The notes under the pieces were generated by a model that did not search any database, had not been told where the DNA came from, and saw only the letters and a list, made by a program, of their open reading frames with translations. A stretch of DNA of 64,000 nt from Acidimicrobiia bacterium (GTDB lineage Bacteria > Actinomycetota > Acidimicrobiia > Spongiisociales > UBA5794), in the NCBI GenBank assembly GCA_003235475.1, contig QJWC01000028.1, forward strand, positions 1,188 through 65,187, in the 5' to 3' direction. The position numbers and the translations under genes are program-made. This document shows, one piece after another, positions 33,401-63,999 of this stretch (positions are counted from its first letter, which is position 1; each line of letters opens with the position of its first letter).

Positions 33401-33844
33401 ACCCGTGTTGAACCACTGGGGTGAGTTCGGGGCAGCCATCTGGTGGAGGAGCATGTAGACGAGCTCGTCCTCGAAGATCCGCGCGTCGTCTGCGGTTGCG
33501 AAGTAGCCGTTCTCCTCGCCCCACCAGCGCCACGTCGCTGCGAGACGGTCGACGACCTGCTTCACGGACCGTTCCGGGCCGCGAACCGGTGTGCCGTCCT
33601 CGTCGAGAAGGGGAGTGCCGTCTTCGGCGACCTGCGGAACGCCCGCCTTGCGGAAGTACTTCGACACGACGATGTCCGCGGCGACCTGCGACCAGTCCGC
33701 AGGGATCTCGGCATCGGTCATCTCGAAGACGATCGAGCCGTCTGGGTTCGTGATACGGGAATCCCGCTTCGACCATTCGACGGTGTCGTAGGGGCTCACA
33801 CCATCGGTGGTGAACCGTCGTTCGATCCGCAGACCCTTTGTCAT
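30449..33844 (-). CDS. nrdJ: Vitamin B12-dependent (class II) ribonucleotide reductase
   Basis: About 1131 aa. SNPCSEY active-site region and the C-terminal Cys cluster CDTCGHITVRNGSCYRCLNCG. ATG 33844 is preceded by GGAGG. Confidence 0.95.
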   Translation of the reverse strand: MTKGLRIERRFTTDGVSPYDTVEWSKRDSRITNPDGSIVFEMTDAEIPADWSQVAADIVVSKYFRKAGVPQVAEDGTPLLDEDGTPVRGPERSVKQVVDRLAATWRWWGEENGYFATADDARIFEDELVYMLLHQMAAPNSPQWFNTGLHHRYGIEGPEQGFWFVNPETDELEASPDSYSRPAPHACFIQSVSDDLVNPGGIMDLWVREARLFKFGSGTGSNFSNIRAEGEPLSGGGKSSGLMSFLKVGDRAAGAIKSGGTTRRAAKMVILDVDHPDIETFVAWKAEEEKKVHAMVAAGYSADFNGEAYATVSGQNSNNSVRMTNEFVQAVIDDADWHLTRRTDGATMKTVKARDLWSQIAEAAWASADPGVQFHSTINEWHTSPAGGQIRASNPCSEYMFLDNTACNLASLNLGKFYDDATGEFDLASYEHAIRVWTMVLEISVTMAHFPSKEIAQGSYDYRTLGLGYANLGSLLMRMGIAYDSDEGRAIAGALTAILTGYSYATSAEMASVVGPFPKYEENEASMLRVIKNHRRAAYGAEQFEYDAIGHRVVGVDQDLCPEDMLASAHKAWDTALELGEANGYRNAQATVLAPTGTIGLLMDCDTTGVEPDFALVKFKKLAGGGYFKIANQSIAPALAKLGYGEREISEIIEYVIGSISLEKARHINTRTLLAKGFTKADIAKVEATLPGVFEIGFAFNQWTLGEEAMQRLGFTPEEYNGLGFNMLSSLGFTQTEINEANDDICGRQTIEGAPHLRDEHLEVFDTANKNGKFGQRYIHHTGHIRMMAAAQPFISGAISKTINMPNEATVDDIMESYQLSWELGLKAMALYRDGSKASQPLSATSDEGSSDEEDDELTAAVERHVDFFSGAFTPGMSPTQAYESLPRPRFMLPARRAGFTQEARIGGHKVFLRTGEYEDGTLGELFLDLAKEGATLRGILGCFAIAVSKGLQYGVPLEEYVDTFTFQTFEPRGMVEGHPNIKMANSIIDYVFRALGVEYLHRDELAQVPPDRSGDLPEPPQGIAVDAGVQLDLTEAAMEQDIDAQVAAARFADNGDSSNGVINLADAPAPVGAVAPQGVHSAQELQTAAVQAVLADKMGDAPLCDTCGHITVRNGSCYRCLNCGESKGCS

Positions 33845-33904
33845 AGATGCCTCCAGGCGTCCTTGCCACATGCCATGGCCACTTATCCACACACTTGCCC
33901 ACAT

Positions 33905-33953
33905 ACACAACATGTAGTGGTTGGGAGGTGTCTCAACCCACGAGATGTTGTGC
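33905..33953 (-). promoter_or_regulatory. Two tandem NrdR-box-like 16-mers upstream of nrdJ
   Basis: Read on the minus strand: CCACTACATGTTGTGT (33905-33920) and GCACAACATCTCGTGG (33938-33953). Against the recalled consensus acaCwAtATaTwGtgt they match 13/16 and 11/16. Centres are 33 bp apart. Confidence 0.6.
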
Positions 33954-34223
33954 TGGGTTGCACGAGTGTAATTACACGCGTGGCACTCGTCAAATACCCA
34001 TTTCCGCGCGGCGGTATTCACTTGTCTCAAGGGGAAGCCCCGTATGTGTAGCGCACTGCGAGCCGTCACTCCAAGCCGGATCCGTGAAGGGTTTTCGCGA
34101 CGTCGGATGTGTTTCGCGAACCGCGGTCGAGGGCGTGCGCGCGCTCGTACCCGAGCCGACGCTCGAGGCCCGGAGCATCTATCTTTGGTGTCGAAGACGT
34201 CCCCAGAATCGAGGCATCAGCCC

Positions 34224-46911: not shown

Positions 46912-48153
46912 TCAGGGCGTGACGGTGCCTTCACACACGCCGAACCCGATCGGCACCCGGCCGTTGGCCTGGCAACGACCTGAGATCGTGACCGTGTCGC
47001 CGTCCTCGAGGAAGGTTCGGGTGCCGCCGTCGACCTCGATCGGTTTCGTCCCGTTCCAGGATCGTTCGAGGAGCGATCCGAACTCGTCGGGTGTCGGTCC
47101 TGACACGGTGCCGGAGGCGAACAGGTCGCCCGCTCTCACCGTTGCCCCGTTCACCGTCGCATGGGTGAGCTGCTGGGCCATCGTCCAGTACATGTTCGTG
47201 AACGAGGTCTCGGTCACCCTCGTCGCGTTGGCCGATCCGGATGGTGTGAGGTCCACTCGTAGGTCGATGGCGACACCGCGGCTGTCGGATCCACGCAGAT
47301 ACGGGAGAGGCTGGGGGTCCTGCTCGTGCGCGGGTACGCGGAATGGCTCGAGGGCTTCGAGAGGCACGATCCACGGCGAGATCGACGTGGCGAAGGACTT
47401 GCCGAGGAATGGGCCGAGCGGCACGTACTCCCAGGCCTGGATGTCGCGGGCCGACCAGTCGTTCACGAGGCACATCCCGAAGATGTGGTGCTCGGCCTCG
47501 TCGACGCCGATCGCCGTGCCGAGCTGAGGCCCCGTCCCGGTGACGAAGCCGACCTCGAGTTCGATGTCCAGCTTCTCCGAAGGCCCGAACGTCGGGCCAT
47601 TCGTACCTCGGCGTTGTCCCCGCGGGCGGGCGATCGGCGTCCCGGACACCACGACGGTTCCCGAGCGGCCGTGGTATCCGACCGGCAGGTGCTTCCAGTT
47701 CGGGAGTAACGGTTCGCCGTCAGGTCGGAACATCTTCCCGACGTTGGTGGCGTGCTGTTCGGAGCTGTAGAAGTCGACATAGTCCCCGATGTCGACGGGC
47801 ATCCGCATGGCAACGGGTTCGCGGACGATGAGGTCGTGCGACTCGCAGAACGCCTGCCCTTCCGTGTTTCCTTCCGCAAGCGTTTCGATCAGGTGCGCTC
47901 GGACGTTCGACCACACACCACGAGCGTGATTGAGGAAGCGGTTGAGGCTCGGCGTGCCGAAGGTGCCGTTCGCGAGCCCTGTGTTCTTGAAGAGCCCGAC
48001 CGCTTCCGCTCGCGCAAGGTCGAACACGACGTCGCCGATGGCGACGCCGCACCGCGTTCCCTGCGCATCCGAGAACACGCCGTAGGGGAGGTTCTGGATC
48101 GGGAAGTCTGATTCCTCCCGCACCTCGATCCACGAGCGGAGGTTCTCGCTCAC
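46912..48153 (-). CDS. fahA: Fumarylacetoacetase
   Basis: FPIQNLPYGVF N-terminal domain and FAH fold motifs (GYHGR, DIELE, GMCLVNDWSARD). GTGA overlap with the upstream gene. Confidence 0.9.
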   Translation of the reverse strand: MSENLRSWIEVREESDFPIQNLPYGVFSDAQGTRCGVAIGDVVFDLARAEAVGLFKNTGLANGTFGTPSLNRFLNHARGVWSNVRAHLIETLAEGNTEGQAFCESHDLIVREPVAMRMPVDIGDYVDFYSSEQHATNVGKMFRPDGEPLLPNWKHLPVGYHGRSGTVVVSGTPIARPRGQRRGTNGPTFGPSEKLDIELEVGFVTGTGPQLGTAIGVDEAEHHIFGMCLVNDWSARDIQAWEYVPLGPFLGKSFATSISPWIVPLEALEPFRVPAHEQDPQPLPYLRGSDSRGVAIDLRVDLTPSGSANATRVTETSFTNMYWTMAQQLTHATVNGATVRAGDLFASGTVSGPTPDEFGSLLERSWNGTKPIEVDGGTRTFLEDGDTVTISGRCQANGRVPIGFGVCEGTVTP

Positions 48154-49070
48154 GTGCCGTCCCCGAGCATGCCTGCGGCCGCGAGGGCATCGAGTGGTTC
48201 ATCGATGTCGCACGACCCGAAGGCCGTGAACCCGATGTTCCTCGACCGGCGCACCGCCGATCCTGCGAAGTGGAGATCGCGCCACGATGCGGTCGCGGCA
48301 CCCATGTGGAAGGCGGTCTCGTCGGCTTCACCCACGATCGACGCGACGGTGTCACGGTCCGCGCCCTCTCGAGCCGCAACGCCCGCGATCACGATGTTCA
48401 CGAACCCGTGCCGCCAGACACCGAGGTTGTCATCGAAGTGGCGGACGGGCTGGTGGAGGCCGGCAGTGGCCTTGAACGGCACCTGTCGGTTCGTGGCCTC
48501 GACGATGAAGTCCGTGAGCTCGTCGACCGACGGGAAGAGGTCAGGGGTGGCGCCGCCACAGCGCAGCTTCACGCCGCCTGACCGACCGCGGGCGACGAGT
48601 ACGTCCCTCACGGCGCCGATCTGCAGACCGAAGTCGACCGCGCGGTCCACCTCGACGAAGAGCGCGGCCTCGTTGTCTGCGACCGACATTGCATCGACCA
48701 GTTTCTCGACGCCGTCCGGCGACGCATCGGTGAGCTTCGCCTCGATGCCGGTCACCTTCATCGCGGGATCCATCTCACGCGCAAAGGACGAGGCGAGCAC
48801 TCCCGACTCGCCGGGCCCTCGGTCATAGATGACACCGACGGCCCACGGTTCGGACCCCTCGACAAAGGTCTGGGATGCAACCGCGGCAAGCTCCTCGAGT
48901 TGGCTCGCACGGCTGAGGAATCTGCCGACGATCCATTGCTGGTCAGACGCCTTGAGCCGCAGGTAGTCCTCGACCGCGTCCTCCACCGACAGCGATGCGG
49001 GCGGGAACACGCCGGCGTAGTCGATGAGTCCGCCGAGCGCAGCGGTGCGGGCGTCGAGGATGAGCCTCAT
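48150..49070 (-). CDS. Conserved-looking hypothetical protein embedded in the homogentisate operon
   Basis: 306 aa. ATGA overlap with the hmgA stop and GTGA overlap with the fahA start. Motifs GVKLRCGG and FKATAGLHQPVRH. No family recognised. Confidence 0.7.
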   Translation of the reverse strand: MRLILDARTAALGGLIDYAGVFPPASLSVEDAVEDYLRLKASDQQWIVGRFLSRASQLEELAAVASQTFVEGSEPWAVGVIYDRGPGESGVLASSFAREMDPAMKVTGIEAKLTDASPDGVEKLVDAMSVADNEAALFVEVDRAVDFGLQIGAVRDVLVARGRSGGVKLRCGGATPDLFPSVDELTDFIVEATNRQVPFKATAGLHQPVRHFDDNLGVWRHGFVNIVIAGVAAREGADRDTVASIVGEADETAFHMGAATASWRDLHFAGSAVRRSRNIGFTAFGSCDIDEPLDALAAAGMLGDGT

Positions 49071-50233
49071 CGGCCCTCGAGCCACGTCCAGGCGTAGCTG
49101 TCCTCTTCCGAGTCCCGCGCGCCCGGGCCGAGGTCGAGGGGGCGGAACGTGTCGATCATCACCGCAAGCTCCTCGGTCCCGGCCTTGCCGATGCTCGCCT
49201 CGACGGACCCCGGCTGTGGGCCGTGCGTGTGGCCGCCAGGGTGCAGCGAGATCGAGCCCTTCTCGATTCCTGCGCCCTTCCGAGACATGAAGTCGCCGTC
49301 CACATAGAACAGCACCTCATCCGAATCGACGTTTGCGTGGTTGTACGGGGCTGGGATCGCCTGCGGGTGGTAGTCGAAGAGCCGTGGGACGAACGAGCAC
49401 ACGACGACCCCGGGCGCCTCGAACGTCTGATGCACGGGCGGGGGCTGGTGGACACGGCCCGTGATCGGTTCGAAGTCGTGGATCGAGAACTTGTGCGGGT
49501 ACAGGCACCCGTCCCAGCCGACGACATCGAAGGGATGGTGCTCGTAGACGAACCGCGTCATGCCCCCGCGGTGCTTGACCATGACCTCGACGTCCGAGCC
49601 GTGTGCGAGGAGAGGTTCGGTGGGGCCGTGGAGGTCGCGCTCGCAGTACGGCGCGTGTTCGAGGTATTGGCCGTTGCGCGACAGGTACCGCCTCGGCGGG
49701 CCGATGTGGCCCCGTGTCTCGAGGATGAGCGCCCGGACGGGCTCGCTCGACTCGTCGAGCTCGTACCGGTGGATCACCGACGCGGGGATGATCAGGTAGT
49801 CACCGGGCTCGAACCGGATCGCGCCGAACACGGTTTCGAGCGTGCCGATTCCCTGCTCTATGTAGACCATCTCGTCACCGGTGGCGTTCTTGTAGAGACC
49901 AGAGCTGTCGGATCCGACGTAGTACGAGATCGTGCAGTCCTCGTTGCCGAGCAGCACCGCACGCGTCATGACGAGGTCGCCGCCGGCCTTGAGCTGGTGT
50001 GTGCGAAAGTGACGCGGTCGGAGTGGGTGGTTCGGCTTCGTCTCCTGGGTCTCGACGTCGACGCCCTCGATCGCCTTCAGGGCCGTTGGCGGATACCGGT
50101 GGTAGAGCAGTGCGGAATCGAACGAGAAGCCCTCCTCGCCCATGAGTTCCTCGGCGTAGAGCGAACCGTTCGGTTGCCGGAACTGGGTATGGCGCTTGGC
50201 CGGTATCTCGCCGACGGACTGGTAATACGGCAT
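49067..50233 (-). CDS. hmgA: Homogentisate 1,2-dioxygenase
   Basis: 388 aa, short bacterial form. HPFDVVGWDG, NHANVDSDEVLFY and SLHPGGHTHGP. Confidence 0.9.
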   Translation of the reverse strand: MPYYQSVGEIPAKRHTQFRQPNGSLYAEELMGEEGFSFDSALLYHRYPPTALKAIEGVDVETQETKPNHPLRPRHFRTHQLKAGGDLVMTRAVLLGNEDCTISYYVGSDSSGLYKNATGDEMVYIEQGIGTLETVFGAIRFEPGDYLIIPASVIHRYELDESSEPVRALILETRGHIGPPRRYLSRNGQYLEHAPYCERDLHGPTEPLLAHGSDVEVMVKHRGGMTRFVYEHHPFDVVGWDGCLYPHKFSIHDFEPITGRVHQPPPVHQTFEAPGVVVCSFVPRLFDYHPQAIPAPYNHANVDSDEVLFYVDGDFMSRKGAGIEKGSISLHPGGHTHGPQPGSVEASIGKAGTEELAVMIDTFRPLDLGPGARDSEEDSYAWTWLEGR

Positions 50234-50347
50234 CGAGGTCCCTTCTTGCTCGCGCCCATGGTACGGAACCCGCCACCGTTCGGGAGGGGTGGGAGCGTCG
50301 CGATCCTGCGATAATCAGGGTGAGCGAGCTCCCATGGAGGATGGCTG

Positions 50348-51463
50348 ATGGACATCGATCTCACGTTGCGTGCGAAGGAGTTTGCGTCCAAGGATCCCTT
50401 CCCGATGATGGGCTTCGGCCCGATCGAATGGTGGGTGGGCAACGCATTCATGACGGCGCAGGCGTTCCGGGCGTTGCTCGGAATGGAGATCGTCGGGTAC
50501 GCGGGCCCTGAGACGGGTGTGAGGGATCGTTCCTCGTACCTGCTCAAGAGTGATCAGATCCGGTTCATCGTCACCGGCTGTCAGGACGGAGACCACGAGA
50601 TCGCCGAACACGTCAAGCTGCACGGGCCCGGCATCAAGGATGTGGGATTCCTCGTGCCGGATGCCGTGCACGCGCACGCCATGGCGGTCGAGCGCGGTGC
50701 CGAGTCCTACCGAGAGCCTGTGAAGATCGAGAACGATCGTGGCCGGATGGTCATCGGGGCCATCAGGACGTATGGCGAGACCGTGCACTCCCTCATCGAG
50801 CTCGAAGGCGAGGATCCGCGGTTCGAGGAGCGCACCGACACGATCGCCCGCCCGACTGGCCTCCACGCCGTCGACCACGTCGTCGCCAACGTCGAGCTCG
50901 GCAAGATGAACGAGTGGGTCGGGTTCTACGAAAAGATCTTCTCGTTCACCATGTTGCGGCATTTCGACGACGAGGCGATCTCGACCGAGTACACGGCGTT
51001 GATGTCGAAGGTGATGGCAGGCGGCAACGGAATCATCAAGCTGCCGATCAACGAACCCGCAGATGGCAAGAAGAAGAGCCAGATCGAGGAGTACCTCGAC
51101 TTCTACAAGACGCCTGGCGTGCAGCACATCGCCATGTCCACCGACGACCTCCAGACGACGATCTCGGACATCCATGGCAGGGGCCTCGAGACGATCTACG
51201 TGCCGCACGAGTACTACCCGGAGGCCAAGGAGCGGCTCGCTGGTATCGACCTCGATTGGGACAACCTCGAGGCCGAGAGCATCCTCGTCGACAAGGACGA
51301 TGACGGGTATCTGCTCCAGACGTTTTCGAAGATGCTCCAGGACCGACCGACGGTGTTCTTCGAGTTTATCGAGCGCCGCGGTGCGACCGGGTTCGGCGTC
51401 GGCAACTTCAAGGCCCTGTTCGAGAGCATCGAGCGCGAGCAGGCCAAGCGCGGCAACCTCTAG
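50348..51463 (+). CDS. hppD: 4-hydroxyphenylpyruvate dioxygenase
   Basis: DHVVANVELGKM, SQIEEYLDFYKTPGVQHIA, and FFEFIERRGATGFGVGNFKALFESIE. Confidence 0.95.
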   Translation: MDIDLTLRAKEFASKDPFPMMGFGPIEWWVGNAFMTAQAFRALLGMEIVGYAGPETGVRDRSSYLLKSDQIRFIVTGCQDGDHEIAEHVKLHGPGIKDVGFLVPDAVHAHAMAVERGAESYREPVKIENDRGRMVIGAIRTYGETVHSLIELEGEDPRFEERTDTIARPTGLHAVDHVVANVELGKMNEWVGFYEKIFSFTMLRHFDDEAISTEYTALMSKVMAGGNGIIKLPINEPADGKKKSQIEEYLDFYKTPGVQHIAMSTDDLQTTISDIHGRGLETIYVPHEYYPEAKERLAGIDLDWDNLEAESILVDKDDDGYLLQTFSKMLQDRPTVFFEFIERRGATGFGVGNFKALFESIEREQAKRGNL

Positions 51464-53524: not shown

Positions 53525-54748
53525 TCAGGATCCGATGTTGACGGTCTTCTCGATGGCCTTGTAGATGTGCTCGGACATCTTCGCTTCCTCGGGGTCGAGG
53601 AGGTTGGCCATCACCTTCAGCGTCCACTCCATGAGGGTCTTCGATCGGAGGCCGACCGTGGTGAGGGAACGCATAACGGCCGGGTTCCCGATCGCCTTCA
53701 CGAACACCCTCGCGACACGGTGGTAGTCGCCGTACGTCGCTTCGAGCTCCGCCGAATACCCGGCGAGCCCGGTCCGGTTCCCACCGAGAGCGTCCGCAAC
53801 GTGAGCTGCCGCCATCCGGCCGGTCTCGTAGGCGTAATCGATGCCCTCACCGTTGAAGGGATTCACCGCACCGGCGGCATCACCCACCAGGATCCAGTTG
53901 TTTCCCACCTTCGGGCCCACGCTCATCGACATGGGCAGCTTGCCGCCGATCGGCTTCGTGTGGACGGTCTCCTCGGTGATCTTCCAGTGCTCGGGGAGCG
54001 AGGCCGCGTATGCCTCGAGCATCTCGGAGGTATTCACGTCCTTCCACCCCTTGAACGTGGACACGAGTCCCGCCCCGACGTTGATCTCGCCGTCGCCCAG
54101 AGGAAACACCCACCCGTATCCGGGCATCGCCCTTCCCTGACGATCCCGCATGTCGAGTTGCGATTCGATGAACCGGTCGTCCGAGTTCGGGCTCTCCCAA
54201 TAGCCCCGCACCGCCAATCCGTACGGGAAGTCCTTGCGCCTCGCCGCACCGACGCCGCGGCCGAAGCGAGAGTTCGACCCGTCTGCGATGACCACGAACC
54301 TCGGGTGCACCTCGTGCCTGTCAACGCCGTCGTCGAGGACGACACCGGTGACAGTGTCCTGGTCGACGACCGGCGTTGCGGTCGTGCCCTCCGTCACGGT
54401 TGCGCCCTGCGCCGCGGCCATCGCGGCCACCGTGCCGTCGAGATCGGCGCGGCGCATCGTCGCACCCCAGTTCGGGAACTCGGAGTGGTCAGGCCACGGA
54501 AGCTCGATCTTCAGATCACCCGCATAGGCGCGAAGGCCTTCGACGCGGTGGAGGTCGAGGCCGTCGAAGTCGAACCCCATGTCGAGCAGCTGTTTGATGG
54601 CCCTCGGGGTGAGGCCGTCGCCACACGCCTTTTCCCGCGGGTACCTCTTCTTCTCGACGAGGTGGACGTCGACGCCGTTTCGCGCGAGCCAGTACGCCGT
54701 GGATGCTCCACCGGGTCCGCCGCCTACCACAAGGACATCAGATGTCAT
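53525..54748 (-). CDS. Geranylgeranyl reductase family FAD-dependent oxidoreductase (possibly an isoprenoid-quinone side-chain reductase)
   Basis: VLVVGGGPGGAS, KACGDGLTP, and LVGDAAGAVNPFNGEGI. Confidence 0.88.
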   Translation of the reverse strand: MTSDVLVVGGGPGGASTAYWLARNGVDVHLVEKKRYPREKACGDGLTPRAIKQLLDMGFDFDGLDLHRVEGLRAYAGDLKIELPWPDHSEFPNWGATMRRADLDGTVAAMAAAQGATVTEGTTATPVVDQDTVTGVVLDDGVDRHEVHPRFVVIADGSNSRFGRGVGAARRKDFPYGLAVRGYWESPNSDDRFIESQLDMRDRQGRAMPGYGWVFPLGDGEINVGAGLVSTFKGWKDVNTSEMLEAYAASLPEHWKITEETVHTKPIGGKLPMSMSVGPKVGNNWILVGDAAGAVNPFNGEGIDYAYETGRMAAAHVADALGGNRTGLAGYSAELEATYGDYHRVARVFVKAIGNPAVMRSLTTVGLRSKTLMEWTLKVMANLLDPEEAKMSEHIYKAIEKTVNIGS

Positions 54749-54786: not shown

Positions 54787-56196
54787 CTACGGCGCGCTTG
54801 CCTCTGTGCTATCGGCAGCCTCGACGAGCCCGCAGTCCACCTCGGCCTCCTCGATGGACTCGCCACCGAACTGCACGCGTTCGTACAGGACCACCGCCCT
54901 CAGCTGCTCTTCGGAGAGCGAGGACCCGAAGGAAGGCATGACACCGAAGCCGCCGACGGGCTTGTTGGTCGCACCGTATGTCGCGTCTGGCCAATTGGCC
55001 GTGCCGAGGCTGACCCATTCGACGTGGTCAGCGCACGAGCCGCTCGGGAACGTTGCGAGCACCGCGCCCCCGGCGAATGCGGGGCCAGCGCCGCCACCAC
55101 CGTCTGCACCGTGGCATGCGGCGCACTGGGTGAACACGCCAGCACCCATAGCGAAGTAGTCGACGCTTGCCGCGCCGTAGCTCGAACCGTCGCAGTTGAC
55201 CGCGAGGCCGGTCGAGGGATCGACGAGCAGCTGACCGCCAGTGCCGCAGTCGGGGCCGTTCGGCGACACGAGGATGTAGATCACTGCGAGGAGGGGAATG
55301 AGCACGAAGGCGGCTGCCAGCCACGCGGGGTACCTCCCTCGCCTTGCTCCGGCCTCGTCGCCTGCTTCGCCGGTTTGTGGCTCTGCAGCGGTCGCCTCGA
55401 TGACCTCGACCTCGGCATCCGGTACCTCTTCGTCCGTCGCCGTCTCCATGGCGGGAGCCGCTGGTTCCTCGGCGGCGTCTGGGGGAGCAGGGGAGGGCGC
55501 GTCTGCGCTCACGGAGGCCACGTCGACACCGGCCCATTCGGCGAGGACGGCTTCGAGCGGCTCGCCTGTCTTCTTCGCCCGGGCCTCGGCCGAACGCTTT
55601 GCGAGCGCAGCAGGCATTCCCTTGGTCTCGGCGACCTTGTCGAGAAGTTCGTCCATCGACATCGCTCCTGCCGCCGCTGCGACGGGTGACTCCTGGGTGG
55701 GCTCCTGCACGGCAGAAGGCTCCGCAGCGGGCGCCGGTTCGAGTTCCGGTGCGGGTGCGGTCGGTGGTGCAGCCGCCGACGGCTTCGCGCGGAGATCCGC
55801 TTCGATCTCCTCGAGGGTTGACCCGGCCCAATCCGCAAGCACTTCGTCGACGGAGGACTTGGAGTTCTTGGCGCGCGCCTCGGCAGACGACAGAACGAGC
55901 TTGGGTGGCATCCGCTTCGCCTCGGCAGCAAGCTTCACCAGATAATCGGTGGTGAGCGTGGCTGGTGCGACAACGGCCTCCTCACCCACCGGCTCGGCGG
56001 CGGCCTCCGCCGCGGGGGCTGCGGACTCGGCTGGTGCGGGGCTGGATGCTGCGCTGGCATCCTCGCCAGCCCACTCCAGCAGGACCGCTTCGAGGGTCGT
56101 TCCCGTCTTCTCGGCCCGAGCCTTCGCCGATCGCTCGACGAGCGATGCGGGCATCCCCCGGATCTCAGCCACCTTCTGTAGCAGTTCGTCCATCAT
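54787..56196 (-). CDS. Membrane-anchored monoheme c-type cytochrome with three N-terminal repeat modules
   Basis: Three copies of a module of about 43 aa, Ala/Pro linkers, TM AWLAAAFVLIPLLAVIYILV, heme site CAACH and GVMPSF (Met ligand). The ATG directly follows the stop of the upstream gene. Confidence 0.8.
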   Translation of the reverse strand: MMDELLQKVAEIRGMPASLVERSAKARAEKTGTTLEAVLLEWAGEDASAASSPAPAESAAPAAEAAAEPVGEEAVVAPATLTTDYLVKLAAEAKRMPPKLVLSSAEARAKNSKSSVDEVLADWAGSTLEEIEADLRAKPSAAAPPTAPAPELEPAPAAEPSAVQEPTQESPVAAAAGAMSMDELLDKVAETKGMPAALAKRSAEARAKKTGEPLEAVLAEWAGVDVASVSADAPSPAPPDAAEEPAAPAMETATDEEVPDAEVEVIEATAAEPQTGEAGDEAGARRGRYPAWLAAAFVLIPLLAVIYILVSPNGPDCGTGGQLLVDPSTGLAVNCDGSSYGAASVDYFAMGAGVFTQCAACHGADGGGGAGPAFAGGAVLATFPSGSCADHVEWVSLGTANWPDATYGATNKPVGGFGVMPSFGSSLSEEQLRAVVLYERVQFGGESIEEAEVDCGLVEAADSTEASAP

Positions 56197-58188
56197 CTAC
56201 TCCAGCGTCTTCAGGTAGCTGACGAGGGCCTGCACCTCGTCGTCGGAAAGATACGAATACGAGGGCATCGTCGAGTACGGAACCACGATCCTCGGATCGG
56301 TCAGGTGCGCCCCCAGGATCACTACGTCGATGGCCTCCCGGCTCGCGTAGTGCATCAGGTCCGGCCCGTAACGATCCGCTCCCACGAGGGCAGGCGACTC
56401 GTGGGCATAGTCGCCGGGAACGCTGACCGGCCCGAGACCGACGTCGGTGCCCACCGGGCGAACGACCTGCGTGTGGCATTCGCCGCACCCCTCGGAGATG
56501 TAGAGGTTGCGGCCGTCGAACTCGGCAGTCCCGCTCTGGTAGATGCGGCTGGTGTCGGCGAGGATCGTCGGGTCGCGGTCCGTGTCGTCCATGGTCGGGA
56601 TCACAGCTGCGACGAGCGCCGCGAGTATCCACAGCGTGGCCACCCCGGTGATGAGGCCCTTCCACGTCAGGGATGTCGCGTCCGCTGCGAACTCGAGCTC
56701 GTACTCAGGTGGCGCCTCCGGAGCCTCGAGGGGTTCGTCGGACCGCGCGTTGATGCCGATGAGGTAGAGGATCTGAGCAGCTGCGTAGACGACGGCCGAG
56801 ATTGCGGCGATCCAGAGGAAGGGCTCAGCGGTGTCGATCGTGACCTTCCACGCGATACCCCCGTTCGCATAGGCCTGCACCGCCGGACCGGCGGCCCAGG
56901 AGAAGGCGACGGCTGTCCCGCCCGCGAGGAGGCCAACGGTCACACCGACCAGGCCAGCCAGGGACATCTTGGAGTGGAATACAGCAAGGGTGCCGCCATC
57001 CCCGGCAATCAGACGATGGCCTGCGAAGACGGAGAAGGCAATCGCCCCGAGGAGGAGAAGGACGCGGGTGCCATCGACCCACGTCGAGTACGCAATCACC
57101 GCGCTCGTCGCGCGCCAGGCGAGAAGGATCGAAGCGACAACGGCGACCGACCCTGCCATGCCCGATACGACGACGCTGCGAAGGGCTGCCCTGTTCCTGA
57201 TCGAGGCGATCCGGCCCTTGAGCATCAGTCCGAGGTCCGTGGCGATGACGAGCAACGGCACGAGGGCACCGAGCGTGATGGCCACCGAGATCGTCTCGAG
57301 CCAGTCGGGCGCCGGCGAGTAGATCTGTGCCCACCCGCTCAGGAAGAGCGACACGAGCACTGCGGACCAGAAGCCCAAGGGCCCGAGGTTGCTCGGCTCG
57401 GTCGCGTCGACCCCTGAGAGGGAGGCGACCACGAAATAGAGCACGCCGATCGTTCCGAGTACCAGGAAGGCGTGGACGGAGCCCGACGCGAACGCGGTGA
57501 GAAGTGCCCCGGGGATTCCATGCGAAACCGACACAAGCCCCACCACGCCCCCGAGTGTGAGGACGATCGGGGCGGCAACGAGGTACCAGCCGGCGGGGCC
57601 GAGCGAATCCTGCTTCGCCTTCGCGGTTCCCCTGATCGCCAACGTTGCAAGCAGGGCGCCGACGACGAGGAGCGCCCTCGCCCAGATCGGGGCTGGCAGG
57701 TCGGTGATGCCCGTGTTGAGCCCGAACACCACGCCGAGTGCGCCAGCCACTGCTCCGAGTGACAAGGTCGCGAGGGAGGCCATTGCAAAGGGGGCGCGTC
57801 GCAGCGGCGAGTCAGCGAGGCTGCCGATCGCGTGGTAGGCGAGGCCGATGAGCCCGATCGTCGCAAAGCCGTCGACGAGGAGGATCCGCGAGGCAGGGGC
57901 GATCCTTCCGTAGGTCAAGAAAGCGATCCCAGAGCCGAGATCGGGGAGGACGAGCTGGAGCGAAGCGAGGGCGGCGAGGATCCCGCCAACCACCAGAAAG
58001 GCCGCCGAGACCATGAGATGGAGACCCACGAGCTGCGGTCCCTGGTCGACGGACCCCGCACTCTGCGTGTCGTGTGATCCAGTGTCGGCTGTCACGCTCG
58101 CGGCGTCCTCCTGTGCGGCGCGGTGGTTCCGCCGCGCTCTGAAGCTGGGCAACGAGACTCTAGCCAATGACGGCTCTCCAAGGTTCAT
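56197..58188 (-). CDS. CcoN-like (ligand-deficient) polytopic domain fused to CcoO/FixO-type monoheme cytochrome c
   Basis: C-terminal GRNLYISEGCGECHTQVVRP...DRYGPDL...TMPSY aligns with recalled CcoO. The N-terminal domain keeps CcoN framework motifs, but His and Tyr ligands appear replaced (see findings). Confidence 0.75.
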   Translation of the reverse strand: MNLGEPSLARVSLPSFRARRNHRAAQEDAASVTADTGSHDTQSAGSVDQGPQLVGLHLMVSAAFLVVGGILAALASLQLVLPDLGSGIAFLTYGRIAPASRILLVDGFATIGLIGLAYHAIGSLADSPLRRAPFAMASLATLSLGAVAGALGVVFGLNTGITDLPAPIWARALLVVGALLATLAIRGTAKAKQDSLGPAGWYLVAAPIVLTLGGVVGLVSVSHGIPGALLTAFASGSVHAFLVLGTIGVLYFVVASLSGVDATEPSNLGPLGFWSAVLVSLFLSGWAQIYSPAPDWLETISVAITLGALVPLLVIATDLGLMLKGRIASIRNRAALRSVVVSGMAGSVAVVASILLAWRATSAVIAYSTWVDGTRVLLLLGAIAFSVFAGHRLIAGDGGTLAVFHSKMSLAGLVGVTVGLLAGGTAVAFSWAAGPAVQAYANGGIAWKVTIDTAEPFLWIAAISAVVYAAAQILYLIGINARSDEPLEAPEAPPEYELEFAADATSLTWKGLITGVATLWILAALVAAVIPTMDDTDRDPTILADTSRIYQSGTAEFDGRNLYISEGCGECHTQVVRPVGTDVGLGPVSVPGDYAHESPALVGADRYGPDLMHYASREAIDVVILGAHLTDPRIVVPYSTMPSYSYLSDDEVQALVSYLKTLE

Positions 58189-58283
58189 TGGGGTCGATGG
58201 CGAACCCGTGCCTCGAGAATGTCATCGTGTAACGTCCCCTGCGCCCGTGCTGTCAACGCAGATCACTCGGGCGCCGTAGACTG

Positions 58284-58892
58284 TTGCGAACTCTCCGAGG
58301 GTTGGTAGTGAACGAACGCAGACAACTCATCGCAGGAATGGGACTCCTCGTCGTTGGCATCGTCGTCGCCATCCTCGGCGCCGTCATGGCGCACATGGCA
58401 GAGGCCCCCGATGTCGATCAGTTCGGACGCGCCATGTTCTCCGGATTTCCAAGGGGCTGGATCGTCGCAACGCTTGCCCAATCGATGTCGCTCGGTGGCG
58501 TGATGGTTGCGATGGGTGGCCTCGCATTTGGCCTCATTTGGAAGCGGAAGCTGACCTGGGCGCGGGCGATGCTCGGCGCACTGCTGTTCACGGGGTTGAT
58601 GTTCATCATCTTCGCGATCGTCCCGAACCAGATGCTCACGATCTTCCAGGCGACCCTCGAGTGGACGCCGCAGAAGATCTTCGTCACGATCCCGCCATGG
58701 CTGATCCTCGGTCAGGACATCTCCATTTCCTATGCCACGCTCAAGGACATGATCGTGGCCGGCTTCCTCACGACGATGCTGCTTGTGGTCCCGATCGCGA
58801 TGTACCAGATCCAGGAGCGGGCGAAACGGGCAGACGTCCCGAAGCCGCAGCCCGTGTCCACGTATGGTCGACCGATGCGGGTGCCCGACTGA
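58284..58892 (+). CDS. Polytopic membrane protein, first gene of the Rieske/cyt b operon (hypothetical)
   Basis: 4-5 TM helices. TGATG coupling to the ferredoxin gene. Start uncertain: TTG 58284, GTG 58308 or ATG 58338. Confidence 0.6.
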   Translation: MRTLRGLVVNERRQLIAGMGLLVVGIVVAILGAVMAHMAEAPDVDQFGRAMFSGFPRGWIVATLAQSMSLGGVMVAMGGLAFGLIWKRKLTWARAMLGALLFTGLMFIIFAIVPNQMLTIFQATLEWTPQKIFVTIPPWLILGQDISISYATLKDMIVAGFLTTMLLVVPIAMYQIQERAKRADVPKPQPVSTYGRPMRVPD

Positions 58893-59332
58893 TGGCAAAG
58901 GAAGTCTGGCTCGAGACCCCGCCGATTCGCGATGACTACCAGCTCGCGATGGTCGATACCGCGTACCTGACCGCCGCAGTCAAGCCCAAGCAGTTCATCC
59001 ACATCAACGAGTCCGAATGCATCCTGTGCGCAGGGTGCGTCGACATCTGCCCGTGGAAGTGCATCCACTTCCTCACGCCCGACATCGTCACCGAGACGTT
59101 CGGCGTCGAGAACCCCGCGGACAAGGAAGAGAACGGGGCCCTCTTCCTGATCGACGATACGGAGTGCACGAGGTGCAAACTGTGCGTCGATCGGTGCCCG
59201 ACCAACGTCATCACCATCGGCAAGTTCGCGGGTTCGGTTGCGGAGCAGACCGAGTACGCGGAAGCGCCGTGGGAGTTGGACACGGGTGAACGTGACCACA
59301 AGAACGGATACAGCTACGGCATGCGCTGGTAG
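58892..59332 (+). CDS. 4Fe-4S dicluster ferredoxin-domain protein
   Basis: CILCAGCVDICP and CTRCKLCVDRCP. Confidence 0.85.
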   Translation: MAKEVWLETPPIRDDYQLAMVDTAYLTAAVKPKQFIHINESECILCAGCVDICPWKCIHFLTPDIVTETFGVENPADKEENGALFLIDDTECTRCKLCVDRCPTNVITIGKFAGSVAEQTEYAEAPWELDTGERDHKNGYSYGMRW

Positions 59333-59348: not shown

Positions 59349-60122
59349 GTGGCTGACAGAGGACGAACGAGTCTCAAGGAGCGGGTGAGCGGGCTGGGCG
59401 ACCACGTCCGCAACTCCCAGGTCTGGACATCGATCTTCAGGCCTGGCTCGGCGCTGCGCGCCGACAGCGGTGACTCCCCGAGGAACCGTGCCTATGTCGT
59501 GATGAACAATGTGCTCTACCACCTCCACCCCGTGAAGGTGAAGCGGCGTGGGATCAAGGTCTCCTACACGTTGTGCCTCGGCGGGTTGAGCTTCTTCCTG
59601 TTCATCCTGCTCACTGTGACCGGCATCTTCCTGATGTTCTACTACCGGCCGACGTCGCCGCAGGCCTACTTCGATATGCAGGCACTTGCGACCGACGTGG
59701 CATTCGGGCAACTGGTGCGCAACATGCACCGATGGGGCGCTCACGTGATGGTGCTGACGGTCTTCCTGCACATGACTCGGGTCTTCTACCACGGCGCCTA
59801 CAAGCCGCCGCGCGAGTTCAACTGGGTCGTCGGCATCATCCTCCTGTTGCTCACGCTGCTGCTCTCGTTCACCGGCTACCTGCTCCCGTGGGACCAGCTC
59901 GCGTTGTGGGCGGTGACGGTGGGCTCGAACATGGGCGGCTACGTGCCGGTGTTCGGGCGACAAGTGTCGTTCGCGCTCGTCGGCGGTGTCCAGATCACCG
60001 CGGACACGTTGTTGCGGTTCTACGTGCTCCATGTTCTCTTCCTGCCGTTCATCATCGTCATCTTCATGGCCGTCCACTTCTGGCGGGTCCGTAAAGACGG
60101 CGGAATATCGGGACCGCTCTAA
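59349..60122 (+). CDS. Cytochrome b, N-terminal (b6-type, four-helix) subunit
   Basis: [24 protein letters not shown] and [25 protein letters not shown] supply four heme His. [10 protein letters not shown] also present. Confidence 0.9.
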
Positions 60123-60131
60123 GGAGAATGC

Positions 60132-61010
60132 ATGGCAGACCTTCCTGAACATCTCCTCAAGAGAGCCGCTGAGGCCCGTGCGAAAGCCGAGGGCGTGCCC
60201 GTCGAGCAGGTTCTCGCTGAAATGAAGGGTGAGGCACCCGCGGCTGCGGCGCCGGCGGCTGCAGCACCTGCCGCGGCCGCTTCGCAAGGCGCTGGACGAG
60301 ACCTCGATGCGGATTCCGCGAAGTTCGGCGTGCCGCGTCCGCTTCTCGAAAGGGCGATGCTCGCGAGGGCAAGGCGCGACGGTACGCCGGTTCCCCAACT
60401 CGTCGGCGCGGGCGCTCCGGCCGCCGCAGCGGCCCCCGCTGCGAGCGCGGCACCAGCCGCCGCTCCGAAGGCGGCGTCCGCTGGTCCGCCCCCGGGCGTT
60501 CGGACGCAGCGACTCCTCACCGTCGTCAAGGCAAACGCGATTCAGGGGACGACGAGGGAGCCACAGGACAAGGTCAACGTGTGGCCCCACCTGCTCGCAA
60601 TCGAGTTCGTCGCCCTCATCTCAATGCTCGCCTTCCTGACCCTGCTGTCGGCCCTGGTCGACGCGCCGCTTCTCGAGTTCGCAAACTTCAACCAGCAGCC
60701 GAACCCCTCGAAAGCGCCGTGGTACTTCCTGGGCCTCCAGGAGATGCTCGCCTACTTCGACCCCATGCTCGCCGGCGTGCTGATCCCAGGGTTCGGGCTC
60801 GCGGCGCTCGCGTTCATCCCGTATGTCGACAGAAACCCGTCGGTGCGCCCCTCCGACCGGAAGCTCGCCATCTCGCTCTACACGGTGTTCTTCGTCGGTG
60901 CTTCGATCCTCACCATCTTCGGTTCGTTCTTCAGGGGACCGGGGTTCAACTTCACGTTCCCGTGGCGTGACGGCATCTTCTTCGACGACTTATTGACGAT
61001 CCTCGAATGA
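60132..61010 (+). CDS. Cytochrome b C-terminal (subunit IV-like) protein with N-terminal repeat/linker extension
   Basis: About 125 aa of extension with two repeat modules and poly-Ala/Pro. Three TM helices follow, with the Qo-region motif KAPWYFLGLQEML. AAGGAG precedes the ATG. Confidence 0.85.
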   Translation: MADLPEHLLKRAAEARAKAEGVPVEQVLAEMKGEAPAAAAPAAAAPAAAASQGAGRDLDADSAKFGVPRPLLERAMLARARRDGTPVPQLVGAGAPAAAAAPAASAAPAAAPKAASAGPPPGVRTQRLLTVVKANAIQGTTREPQDKVNVWPHLLAIEFVALISMLAFLTLLSALVDAPLLEFANFNQQPNPSKAPWYFLGLQEMLAYFDPMLAGVLIPGFGLAALAFIPYVDRNPSVRPSDRKLAISLYTVFFVGASILTIFGSFFRGPGFNFTFPWRDGIFFDDLLTILE

Positions 61011-61852
61011 GCGGCGCAGCACTTTTCGGCATCATCCTCGTGGTCTCCACCGTCGTGGCGGCGGGAGCGATCATCGCGATCGCGTCGCGCCGCAGCGACA
61101 GCGAGGGATCTGTCACGAGCGCGGAGCTCGACCGGAAGGCAGCCAAGGCCGATCGCGATCGTCGCAAGGCGATGGCAGCGGCAGCACCGGCGGACGCGCC
61201 GCCGGCGAAGCTGGTTCCCGCCCCTATCGAGTTCGAGGACGACGCTCCGAGGCAGGAAGTCACGGCATCCGAGTTCGGCGTCACCCGGCGGAAGTTCTTC
61301 AACCGCGCGGTCGGGGCGATCTTCGGCTTGTACCTGCTCCAGTTCGCGCTCGCGGGCCTGGCGTTCTTCTGGCCGAAGCTCAAGGGCGGATTCGGCACGC
61401 CGATCAGCGCAGGTGCGCTCGACGCTCTCAAGGCCGAGGTGGTCGACGGCGCCCGGTTGGTACCCAAGTTCATCCCGGCAGCCCAGTCATGGGTCGTTCC
61501 CTTCCCGATGAGCAGCTTGCCGGGATCGTCGTTCGAGGCGACGCCGTTCGTCGTCGCGGGGGGTGAGTCGGACGGCATCGGGCTCATGGCTCTCTGGCAG
61601 CGATGCGTTCACCTCGGGTGCCGCGTCCCCTCGTGCGAGTCGTCCCAGGGCTTCGAATGCCCGTGCCACGGCTCGAAGTACAACGGCCACGGCGAATACT
61701 CTGCTGGTCCCGCGCCCCGCAACCTCGACCGGTTCGCGGTGAGCGTGGACGCGGCGGGCGAGTTCATCATCGAGACGGGCACCGTGGTCCAGACTGCTCG
61801 TGCGAAGCACTACACGATCGCGTATCCCCAAGGGCCGTTCTGTGTGGGGTGA
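61007..61852 (+). CDS. Rieske 2Fe-2S subunit
   Basis: CVHLGC...CPCHGSKY. Also TRRKFFN (twin-Arg-like) and N-terminal TM helices. ATGA overlap with the upstream gene. Confidence 0.9.
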   Translation: MSGAALFGIILVVSTVVAAGAIIAIASRRSDSEGSVTSAELDRKAAKADRDRRKAMAAAAPADAPPAKLVPAPIEFEDDAPRQEVTASEFGVTRRKFFNRAVGAIFGLYLLQFALAGLAFFWPKLKGGFGTPISAGALDALKAEVVDGARLVPKFIPAAQSWVVPFPMSSLPGSSFEATPFVVAGGESDGIGLMALWQRCVHLGCRVPSCESSQGFECPCHGSKYNGHGEYSAGPAPRNLDRFAVSVDAAGEFIIETGTVVQTARAKHYTIAYPQGPFCVG

Positions 61853-61858
61853 CCGATC

Positions 61859-63490
61859 GTGATGCTTGATTTCATCCTCGCAACCGCGGAGGAGACAGAG
61901 GTCGTCGACTCGAAGGCGGGCCTCGGCGTCGGCGCGTGGGCGCTGATCATCGTGGTCGCCGTGATCCTCTTGTGGATGGCGTACCTCTACATCAACTCCC
62001 GGCAGTCACGATCCGCCGCGGCGGAGGCAGCACCACCGAACCTTTCGCCAGGGGCATCAGACGACGAACTCGAGAACAAGAGGCTCACGGCCGTTCTCCG
62101 TGCGGCACTGTTCGGGTCGGCTCTGCTCGCTATCTCGCTTCCGTGGTATGCCTTCAACGAACCGGACCGCCAGGTCGAGGCCGCGTCAGAGATCCTCGCC
62201 GCCGACGTGGAGGCTGGAGCCCACTATTTCAGCCGTGAGGGCTTCCAGTGTGCGAACTGCCACGGACCTTCGGGCGGGGGCGGCGGGGCCGCCTTCGAAG
62301 AGCCGCGATCGAAGGTCAACACGACATGGACCGCCCCTTCCCTCGATGACATCTTCTTCCGGTACGCCGACGATGAAGTCCGCTACTGGATCGAGTACGG
62401 CAGGGCTGGCACCCCGATGCCCGCGTGGGGTCTCGTCGGTGGCGGTGCAATGACCGGGCAGGAGATAGACCAGACGATGGCGTACATCAGGTCCATCCAG
62501 GTCGACCAGGCAACTGCGTTCGGACGCTCCGAAAGTGCAGCAGCACTGGCGCTCGCGCGGATGGCGAACGGTACGGTGACGACGCAGAGCCTCATCAACA
62601 AGCAGACCGCTGCGATCGCCGACGTGAACGCCGCACCGGACAAGATCGCTGTCGTCGGTGGATACCCCGATGAGGTCGCCGATCTCCTCCAAGGCCCCGG
62701 AACCTGCACCGACGCCTCCGCCGCGCTCGTCAACGCCACCTGTTCGTCGCCGGGGCAGGACCTCGACCGTGACGGTCTGGCCGACGCCGCGGAGGTGCGG
62801 CTCACCGACATCGCAACGTCGGCGATGGAAACCATCACGGTGACCGTGGAGAACGTGCCGCCAGCGCAACCGGGGCAACCGCCGCTGCCCAACATGTACG
62901 TGCCCGGGCCGAACACCGCGTACGACCTCAGCTTCGACCCATTCGCCGCGTTCACGAACTCGAATCCGGACACCAGGGCTCCCGAGCCAGACCTCGACGC
63001 AGCAGACACGCTCCTGAACCTCCTTCGCAACGACGTGCTCGTCATCAATGTCACCGCTGAGCGGGGGGACGACTTCCTCGCCAAGCTCAGGCCGGGGCTC
63101 GAGTTCCTCCAGACCGCACTCGAGGAGCAGCCGTGGATGGTGGATACCGCTGCCGCCGCGGACTACATGGGCGTGTCCGTGGAGGACGCCACGATGGCTG
63201 TCGGACTGTTCAATGCCTATTGCGCCAGGTGTCACACGGGTGGCTACAGCGCAGGACCGTCGTTCGAGCGTGGCGCGGGATCGGGCGCCTGGGGCCCGTC
63301 GTTGCGAAACGGCCGTGCCGTGACGCAGTTCCCGGACATGGCTGATCAGGTCAAGTTCGTCATCTCCGGCTCTGAGAACGCCAAGGGCTACGGCACCAAT
63401 GGCATCGGCACCGGCCGCATGCCGAGCTTCGGGGCCCTGCTGTCGGAGCGCCAGATCGAACTCATCGTCGCCTACACGAGGGGGCTGTGA
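61859..63490 (+). CDS. Diheme c-type cytochrome with a large inter-domain insertion
   Basis: Two TM helices. Heme sites CANCH (aa 131) and CARCH (aa 455), each followed by a Met-ligand region (TPMPAW, GRMPSF). About 225 aa lie between the two domains. Confidence 0.85.
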   Translation: MMLDFILATAEETEVVDSKAGLGVGAWALIIVVAVILLWMAYLYINSRQSRSAAAEAAPPNLSPGASDDELENKRLTAVLRAALFGSALLAISLPWYAFNEPDRQVEAASEILAADVEAGAHYFSREGFQCANCHGPSGGGGGAAFEEPRSKVNTTWTAPSLDDIFFRYADDEVRYWIEYGRAGTPMPAWGLVGGGAMTGQEIDQTMAYIRSIQVDQATAFGRSESAAALALARMANGTVTTQSLINKQTAAIADVNAAPDKIAVVGGYPDEVADLLQGPGTCTDASAALVNATCSSPGQDLDRDGLADAAEVRLTDIATSAMETITVTVENVPPAQPGQPPLPNMYVPGPNTAYDLSFDPFAAFTNSNPDTRAPEPDLDAADTLLNLLRNDVLVINVTAERGDDFLAKLRPGLEFLQTALEEQPWMVDTAAAADYMGVSVEDATMAVGLFNAYCARCHTGGYSAGPSFERGAGSGAWGPSLRNGRAVTQFPDMADQVKFVISGSENAKGYGTNGIGTGRMPSFGALLSERQIELIVAYTRGL

Positions 63491-63999
63491 TGCGAACTCC
63501 GAAGGTTCTTCTGATGACTGCTGCAAAGGACGAGCGGGGTCTCTCGAAGCTGGAGTCGCTCGGGCTCATACTGTTCGTCCTCTCGATCCTCGCGATGATC
63601 GGCCCCATCAGGGATCTCGCCGTCAACCTGATCGGGACGGTGTTCAATCAGGTCGACCCTGACACCGGGCACCCGAACGACTTCTCGAAGGCGATGCGTG
63701 GCTTCGCGATCGCTGGTGGTGCGGTCCTGGTTTTTGTCGGGTCGGGCTACCTCGTCATGTGGACCGATCTCGGCAAGCGTCTCGCGTTCCTGCTCATCGG
63801 GGCAGCGACCTCCGGGTACCTCGTCATCAACGGCCTCTTCTTCATCGTGTATGCACCGCGTGGGGTGAGGCCGCCAAACCTCGAGGGTCTCGACGCCATC
63901 CAGATGCGGCTCCCTGCGATCGCGCTCACGCTCGGTTCCCTGTTGATCTTCCTGATGTTCTCGGTCGCCCTCGCGCGGTACGAAGCCGAAGCCGAATAG
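63487..63999 (+). CDS. Polytopic membrane protein, last gene of the Rieske/cyt b operon (hypothetical)
   Basis: Four TM helices. 4-nt overlap with the cytochrome c stop. Stop at 63997-63999. Confidence 0.6.
   Translation: MMRTPKVLLMTAAKDERGLSKLESLGLILFVLSILAMIGPIRDLAVNLIGTVFNQVDPDTGHPNDFSKAMRGFAIAGGAVLVFVGSGYLVMWTDLGKRLAFLLIGAATSGYLVINGLFFIVYAPRGVRPPNLEGLDAIQMRLPAIALTLGSLLIFLMFSVALARYEAEAE

Follow-up and report, generated by a model that had tools for sequence, protein, structure and literature searches.

A CcoN-like domain lacking its heme and copper ligands, fused to a CcoO-type cytochrome c beside a Rieske/cytochrome b6 operon of Acidimicrobiia

A CcoN-CcoO fusion gene without heme and copper ligands

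We analyzed a 64-kb stretch of contig QJWC01000028.1 from an Acidimicrobiia bacterium (the whole stretch is referred to here as the window). It contains an open reading frame (ORF) at 56197..58188 on the minus strand that encodes a CcoN-like domain fused to a CcoO-like part, the counterparts of the two core subunits of cbb3-type cytochrome c oxidases. Read from the first ATG, the product has 663 aa; the true start is probably the GTG of residue 32 (position 58095), which is the start in other gene-calling pipelines and in the family consensus and yields a protein of 632 aa. Both parts are recognized by Pfam: COX1 (PF00115) matches residues 53-467 with profile positions 2-436 of 436 (E=3.8e-17, 62.7 bits, cutoff 34.8), and FixO (PF02433) matches residues 517-654 (E=4.9e-22, 78.9 bits, cutoff 29.6). 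The NCBIfam models score below their cutoffs, with 114 bits for the fused CcoNO (PRK14485, cutoff 1080), 33.3 bits for ccoN (TIGR00780, cutoff 583) and 77 bits for ccoO (TIGR00781, cutoff 200.65). The source annotations of the family read "cbb3-type cytochrome c oxidase subunit I/II". An original prediction, made from the letters of the window, had described the protein as a CcoN-like domain with substituted metal ligands joined to an intact CcoO cytochrome c.

For ligand mapping, a profile built from a family set of 72 relatives (33-75% identity) was aligned to the CcoN subunit of P. stutzeri (3mk7_A), which gave E=2.4e-21 over residues 4-462; the mapping was repeated with hmmalign. The N-terminal domain (N-domain; residues 50-477, 56758..58041, minus strand) has a heme-copper oxidase (HCO) fold with 12 transmembrane (TM) helices and lacks the six His ligands as well as the cross-linked Tyr. 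The low-spin heme b ligands H60 and H347 of CcoN correspond to S100 and V376 of the window protein, the heme b3 ligand H345 to T374, the CuB ligands H207, H257 and H258 to G236, W286 and A287, and the cross-linked Y251 to S280. The substitutions named in the original prediction (Ser for the low-spin heme His, Ser for the Tyr, Trp-Ala for the CuB His pair, Thr and Val for the heme b3 and heme b His) were all recovered. The first CuB His, which the prediction had considered ambiguous, could be resolved: G236 occupies the position of H207, while H239 sits three residues off and is present in 9 of the 72 members. In this rigorous profile alignment, none of the heme and CuB positions is occupied by His.

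The same holds for the whole family. At the six ligand positions His is absent from all 72 members, as is Tyr from the Y251 position, in agreement with the proposal that the domain is unable to build the binuclear O2-reducing center. The residues found at the ligand sites vary and are small or hydrophobic (A/S/G, A, V/A/T, L/F, V/L). The N-domains contain 1-6 His each (mean 3.5), some of them a single one, and the sole His column conserved to at least 90% is H405 (71/72), whose counterpart in CcoN, H384, is not a ligand. Because His residues are so few and only H405 is conserved, the ligand deficiency is independent of alignment details; misalignment was rejected as an explanation on the same ground, the number of His in the domain being countable without an alignment. 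Among the Met, Cys and Lys columns of the 72 N-domains none is conserved to 70% or more, no Cys column reaches 50%, and no conserved alternative ligand was found at or beside the six former ligand sites.

The remainder of the CcoN framework is still recognizable, as had been predicted for a domain of about 12 TM helices. Thirteen framework residues are retained (Q38, P42, G54, R55, P58, W162, Y223, F244, W245, P265, W267, R308 and W410 in CcoN numbering). The Ca2+-site residue Glu122 of CcoN is not kept in the family, and two proton-channel residues are changed, H243 to an invariant Gly and Y317 to Leu in the consensus. Several polar residues in or near the TM helices of the family are conserved: D318 is invariant (72/72), and E298, Y202, Y251 and H405 are invariant or nearly so. 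Y251 of the window protein aligns with Y223 of CcoN, the K-channel analog. A further observation concerns the only His columns of the N-domain conserved to at least 50%, namely the H57 column, H391 and H405: all three are at ends of TM1, TM10 and TM11 that are predicted to face the cytoplasm, where they may form a site.

Structure prediction agrees with the sequence comparison. In the AF2 model, which contains 12 helices plus the CcoO anchor helix, the TM helices have a predicted local distance difference test score (pLDDT) above 90. A Foldseek search with this model returned as best matches the CcoN chains of 3mk7, 9g83 and 8smr (TM-score 0.80-0.83, with 0.83 for P. stutzeri CcoN in 3mk7), followed by NorB and ba3. 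The family profile matches NorB (4xyd_A) weakly (E=0.0027), and the six His that NorB requires in addition to the Glu ligands of FeB, located at the same positions as in CcoN, are all absent. Pfam, profile and Foldseek results thus speak against a different, transporter-like family for the N-domain and identify an HCO fold nearest to CcoN.

The C-terminal CcoO/FixO-like part (residues 509-663; 56200..56664, minus strand) consists of an anchor helix (residues 509-533) and a periplasmic monoheme cytochrome c domain, and by its sequence it is a divergent member of CcoO. It matches P. stutzeri CcoO (3mk7_B) with E=5e-16, with the CxxCH motif and the Met of the KMPSY motif in register. The heme c attachment motif CGECH (C568, C571, H572; 56473..56487, minus strand) is invariant in all 72 members, and M641 (56266..56268, minus strand), the presumed sixth heme c ligand that aligns with the KMPSY Met, is present in 69 of them. 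The intact cytochrome c claimed in the original prediction is thereby confirmed, and the P. stutzeri motifs that it had quoted agree with 3mk7_A/B except for one residue.

Conservation of the fusion and its gene neighborhood

A scan of one genome per species yielded 144 relatives, and 80 loci were kept, nearly all of them from metagenome-assembled genomes (MAGs) of uncultured Acidimicrobiia. About 80 species have an intact fusion ORF (630-680 aa), whose product is 31-50% identical to that of the window. Because it is intact in so many species-level genomes at these identities, the gene is judged to be under purifying selection, which extends to its c-heme motif, its fold and its partnership with a complex-III-type operon. 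Pairwise comparisons within the 72-member family give a mean identity of 52% in the N-domain and 61% in the CcoO part. A distant group of loci (L077-L085, 25-28% identity) with the same synteny encodes separate CcoN-like and FixO-like genes, which are likewise ligand-less. The earlier statement that the domain is retained therefore stands, whereas its being welded to the cytochrome c is not essential, as the unfused sister group in the same synteny is equally ligand-less. The typical Acidimicrobiia locus was also observed, with high identity in all ten genes, in MAGs labeled Kiloniellales (L036, L039, L075), Saprospiraceae (L046) and Acidobacteria (L030, L040, L041); probably the contigs were mis-binned or the taxonomic labels are wrong.

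In every locus of sufficient length, the fusion gene is followed by a membrane cytochrome c gene and usually by a geranylgeranyl-reductase-like FAD enzyme gene, and a divergent operon encodes, in this order, a 4-TM protein, a 2x[4Fe-4S] protein, cytochrome b6, subunit IV, a Rieske protein, a diheme cytochrome c and a second 4-TM protein. The window shows the same arrangement at 53.5-64.0 kb. The TAG stop codon of the fusion gene directly abuts the ATG ATG of the next ORF (54787..56196, minus strand), as had been noted in the original prediction. The product is a membrane-anchored monoheme cytochrome c of 469 aa with a single TM helix (residues 288-315) and a CAACH motif at residue 358. It contains one CxxCH motif, not two as in CcoP, and scores 23.6 bits with TIGR00782 (cutoff 179.95); on sequence grounds it resembles CcoP only in its position and its membrane anchor. 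The FAD-dependent geranylgeranyl-reductase-like gene, syntenic in most loci, lies at 53525..54748 (minus strand).

The two operons are separated by a divergent intergenic region (58189..58283, or from 58096 with the GTG start), in which no sigma-70 consensus was detected; across 53.4-58.4 kb, promoter and terminator signals did not exceed the level expected from shuffled sequence. The divergent operon on the plus strand starts with a 4-TM membrane protein of 202 aa that belongs to no known family and is syntenic everywhere (58284..58892). It continues with the ferredoxin-like gene (58892..59332), a cytochrome b6-type (split) cytochrome b (59349..60122), a subunit IV/cytochrome b C-terminal homolog (60132..61010), a Rieske iron-sulfur protein (61007..61852), a diheme cytochrome c of 543 aa (61859..63490; CANCH at 131, CARCH at 455) and a further syntenic 4-TM protein of 170 aa without known family (63487..63999). 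With a split cytochrome b (PF00033 plus PF00032), a Rieske protein and a c-type cytochrome, the operon has the components of a Rieske/cytochrome b6-type complex, and its cytochrome b6 gene passes the NCBIfam model NF040969 (305.8 bits, cutoff 290). A PDB sequence search found no match for the 202-aa membrane protein or the diheme cytochrome c. The ferredoxin-like protein (about 146 aa, 2x[4Fe-4S]) is syntenic in nearly all loci, and its start codon overlaps the stop codon of the preceding 4-TM gene, to which it is translationally coupled. Complexes of the bc/b6f type do not usually come with such a gene, and its presence hints at an additional branch of low potential on the cytoplasmic side.

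The two operons share a motif of about 43 aa with the consensus MDELLxKVAExxGMPAxLVxRSAxARAxKTGxxLEAVLxEWAG. Three copies are present on the cytoplasmic N-terminal arm of the downstream cytochrome c (residues 1-44, 83-125 and 180-223), and one or two degenerate copies on the N-terminus of subunit IV (residues 7-33 and ~60-92), which in b6f-type complexes lies on the cytoplasmic (n) side. Within the window the motif was found on these two genes only. A hidden Markov model (HMM) of the repeat detects it in the cytochrome c of 77 loci (1-5 copies) and in subunit IV of 51, and it also matches the FixO-like protein that the unfused variants encode separately. No Pfam family and no PDB chain matched the repeat. 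That both operons carry it indirectly supports the idea that their products belong to a common assembly or share a cytoplasmic partner.

Two other regions of the window were noted. A tyrosine/homogentisate catabolism cluster (46912-51463) encodes fumarylacetoacetase, a homogentisate-dioxygenase-like cupin and 4-hydroxyphenylpyruvate dioxygenase; these O2-dependent enzymes are consistent with an aerobic lifestyle although the local "oxidase" is dead. The gene at 30449-34069 (minus strand) encodes a 1206-aa class II (B12-dependent) ribonucleotide reductase, whose barrel domain is matched in two stretches and which carries a TSCPD domain; an insertion, for example an intein, might account for the length and the split match.

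Ligand loss in other CcoN lineages

An exhaustive profile search with the N-domain returned 3005 cluster representatives at E<=1e-3, among them 542 at E<=1e-30. In the top 150 of the 3005 representatives, His was found at none of the six ligand sites in 89, at one in 29, at two in 15 and at all six in 17. Ligand loss is probably widespread in the CcoN superfamily and recurrent across several lineages, as far as can be read from these sequences. In all loci examined, the ligand-less CcoN is paired with a heme-bearing CcoO partner.

In Verrucomicrobia, a CcoN-FixO-cytochrome c module is located between the genes for alternative complex III (ACIII) and an aa3 operon (COX2-COX1-CtaA-CtaB-COX3-SCO1). 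These ACIII-adjacent genes have been treated as a C-type (cbb3) oxidase (PMC8498564, citing Refojo et al. 2010). Like the window module, they stand beside a complex-III-type enzyme, and a subset of them is ligand-less; unlike it, most copies keep all ligands, the genes are unfused, the partner is ACIII and aa3 genes are directly downstream. The complete ligand set (HHYHHHH) is present in 59 of the 80 verrucomicrobial CcoN genes, and about 17 are without it. Intermediates with HRYHHHH (L104, L106), HHSHHHH (L096, L101), HHCSHHH (L092) and HQFRWHY (L161) lie between full-ligand and ligand-less relatives and represent stages of active-site decay in which one CuB His or the cross-linked Tyr is gone. 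The CxxCH motif is kept in all 78 verrucomicrobial FixO-like partners. In a rough neighbor-joining distance tree with midpoint rooting, which was used for close relationships only and not for counting losses, the ligand-less groups of Acidimicrobiia and Verrucomicrobia fall into separate clusters.

A third group, represented by the standalone CcoN-like proteins P0078 and P0100 of Verrucomicrobiota, keeps the equivalent of H60 only and is flanked by ACIII-like and FixO-like genes. In the cluster of P0078 (L005 1833-3332) and P0100, another His was seen one residue away from the H345/H347 positions. Proteins of this subgroup might bind a single low-spin heme, in which case they could represent a half-way state. 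A scan with the "ANG.RQW" subgroup found one locus only, the actinobacterial L246, which contains a CcoN-like gene, a FixO-like gene, a 245-aa ORF and the same FAD enzyme as the loci of the window family.

Possible functions of the ligand-less module

By its sequence, the N-domain is a cofactor-less descendant of CcoN that can hold neither heme b nor heme b3 nor CuB. As ligands for all three are missing, no reduction of O2 or NO at a binuclear center is to be expected, and the window protein is almost certainly not a heme-copper O2 reductase. It shares with the cbb3 core CcoN-CcoO of P. stutzeri (3MK7/5DJQ) the 12-TM fold (TM-score 0.83), the GR..P, GFW and PDW motifs, a monoheme CcoO domain with CxxCH, Met and N-terminal anchor helix, and a further membrane cytochrome c gene in the CcoP position. 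It differs from cbb3 in lacking the six His, the cross-linked Tyr and Glu122, in its NCBIfam scores far below the cutoffs, and in a downstream cytochrome c that is monoheme and carries cytoplasmic repeats. The order N then O is also that of natural CcoNO fusions (PRK14485; Melioribacter roseus CcoNO, PMC5492636). The quinol-dependent NO reductase qNOR, a fusion of a NorC-like part and NorB, likewise joins an HCO subunit I and a cytochrome-c-type partner in a single polypeptide with one half devoid of cofactor (PMC11214002), but it is the mirror image of the window protein: in qNOR the fused cytochrome-c-like part has lost its heme motif and the catalytic part is intact (PMC11214002), whereas the window protein has kept heme c and lost the catalytic center, with the domains in reversed order.

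The loss of all catalytic residues would also be expected of a decaying pseudogene or of an annotation or assembly artefact, an explanation to which we assign practically no weight. About 80 species have intact ORFs of 630-680 aa, with conserved motifs and a fold predicted with confidence; the next gene is still translationally coupled, and the synteny extends through the class. A pseudogene was rejected because the ORFs are conserved and intact. The enzyme might instead still be a catalytic oxidoreductase for O2, NO or another substrate that uses unconventional, non-His ligands for heme or metal. HCO relatives with altered ligands do exist: gNOR has an Asp in place of one CuB His, and the ligands of the low-spin heme are His/Met in nNOR and His/Lys in some eNORs (PMC11214002). 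Several Tyr and one His are indeed conserved in the N-domain. Yet all six ligands are replaced without a conserved substitute at or next to the sites, no Met, Cys or Lys column could stand in for them at the 70% level, and members with one His in the whole domain occur, so that we consider a catalytic N-domain highly improbable.

We lean, by a modest degree, towards a role as a membrane scaffold and c-heme relay that is docked to the Rieske/cytochrome b6 complex and feeds a separate oxidase. The N-domain would survive as a 12-helix membrane scaffold that places the CcoO-type heme c and the co-translated monoheme cytochrome c beside the divergently encoded Rieske/cytochrome b6 complex. Electrons would be taken from the diheme cytochrome c of this complex-III-type enzyme and passed on to a separate, aa3-type terminal oxidase, with the relay module probably residing within a supercomplex. 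We infer the physical association as well as the partners and direction of electron flow from three lines of evidence. In Verrucomicrobia the gene order is ACIII, module, aa3. A-type COX1 genes with HPAVY, HHMF and HFH motifs are present in two family-bearing Acidimicrobiia MAGs, in one of them ~3.7 kb downstream. Finally, the solved bc1-cbb3 supercomplexes of R. capsulatus (6XKW), P. aeruginosa (8SMR) and an alphaproteobacterial source (9G83) show that such modules dock on complex III: in them a cbb3-type module is attached, by function as well as physically, to a Rieske/cytochrome b complex, and c-type hemes pass electrons between the two. All three structures (6xkw, 8smr, 9g83) are among the sequence and fold matches of the window family. 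Their cbb3 is a terminal oxidase, which the window module cannot be, and the association of the latter is deduced from synteny.

Several points weigh against a relay docked in this way. The evidence for its association with the Rieske/cytochrome b6 complex, synteny and the shared motif, is indirect. The neighboring operon encodes its own diheme cytochrome c, so that the need for another relay is not evident. No terminal oxidase was found among the approximately 50 ORFs scanned in the window, and no maturation genes of the ccoGHIS type either; an aa3 oxidase is adjacent in only one of the ~80 Acidimicrobiia loci. Although aa3 genes follow in 13 of the 13 ligand-less verrucomicrobial loci with enough sequence, compared with 21 of the 36 full-ligand loci, this association is phylogenetically non-independent. 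Lastly, the conserved TM residues D318, E298 and H405 hint that the N-domain is more than a passive scaffold.

These residues would find a natural place if the N-domain had been repurposed as an energy-coupling module, conducting ions or protons or binding quinone or lipid, which the redox state of the attached c-heme or of the Rieske/cytochrome b6 complex would drive or gate. Besides D318, E298 and H405, the near-invariant Y202 and Y251 fit this idea, as does an N-domain conservation nearly equal to that of the heme domain. We nevertheless consider it unlikely: other mapped proton-channel residues of CcoN have been lost (the changes to Gly and Leu described above), and we know of no precedent for an HCO fold that pumps without a binuclear center. 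About equally unlikely, in our estimate, is a purely structural or assembly subunit of the Rieske/cytochrome b6 complex or a supercomplex, with the c-heme off the main electron path. Synteny and the shared cytoplasmic motif argue for a common assembly, and the neighboring operon has a diheme cytochrome c of its own. The core 1 and core 2 proteins of mitochondrial bc1, derived from a processing peptidase and kept as structural subunits, are a comparable case in that an enzyme fold was kept in a respiratory assembly after catalysis was lost; they differ in being of unrelated fold and origin, the window protein being a former terminal oxidase with a redox-active partner domain. Against a purely structural subunit stand the invariant CxxCH and near-invariant Met in 72 sequences and the second dedicated cytochrome c that is always co-encoded, and this conservation therefore indicates selection on redox function and not on shape alone.

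Beyond the window family, we propose tentatively, at somewhat less than even confidence, that cofactor-less CcoN proteins are a large unrecognized class of "pseudo-oxidases" which arose from genuine cbb3 in several lineages. They would have been kept as dedicated adaptor or relay subunits between A-type oxidases and enzymes of the complex III type, which are the Rieske/cytochrome b6 complex in Acidimicrobiia and ACIII in Verrucomicrobia; a new energy-coupling role of the empty 12-helix bundle is the alternative. No description of a ligand-less CcoN was found in the searched literature, and an HCO classifier and survey discarded sequences without the six His (PMC3084760).

If this is true, an HCO fold has been kept over class-level evolutionary time without heme or copper, as a pseudoenzyme in a core bioenergetic superfamily. 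The verrucomicrobial series from full ligand set through single loss to none offers a natural experiment on the decay of an oxidase whose partner subunits are kept. The pairing with complex-III-type operons, which is conserved in two phyla, yields a testable hypothesis on the wiring of respiratory chains that have no soluble cytochrome c. Under the pseudo-oxidase as well as the energy-coupling interpretation, many "cbb3 oxidase" calls in metabolic reconstructions from metagenomes would be wrong, and a simple check of the six His columns would correct them. High-affinity, microaerobic respiration as inferred from genomes of Acidimicrobiia and some Verrucomicrobia may accordingly include false positives.

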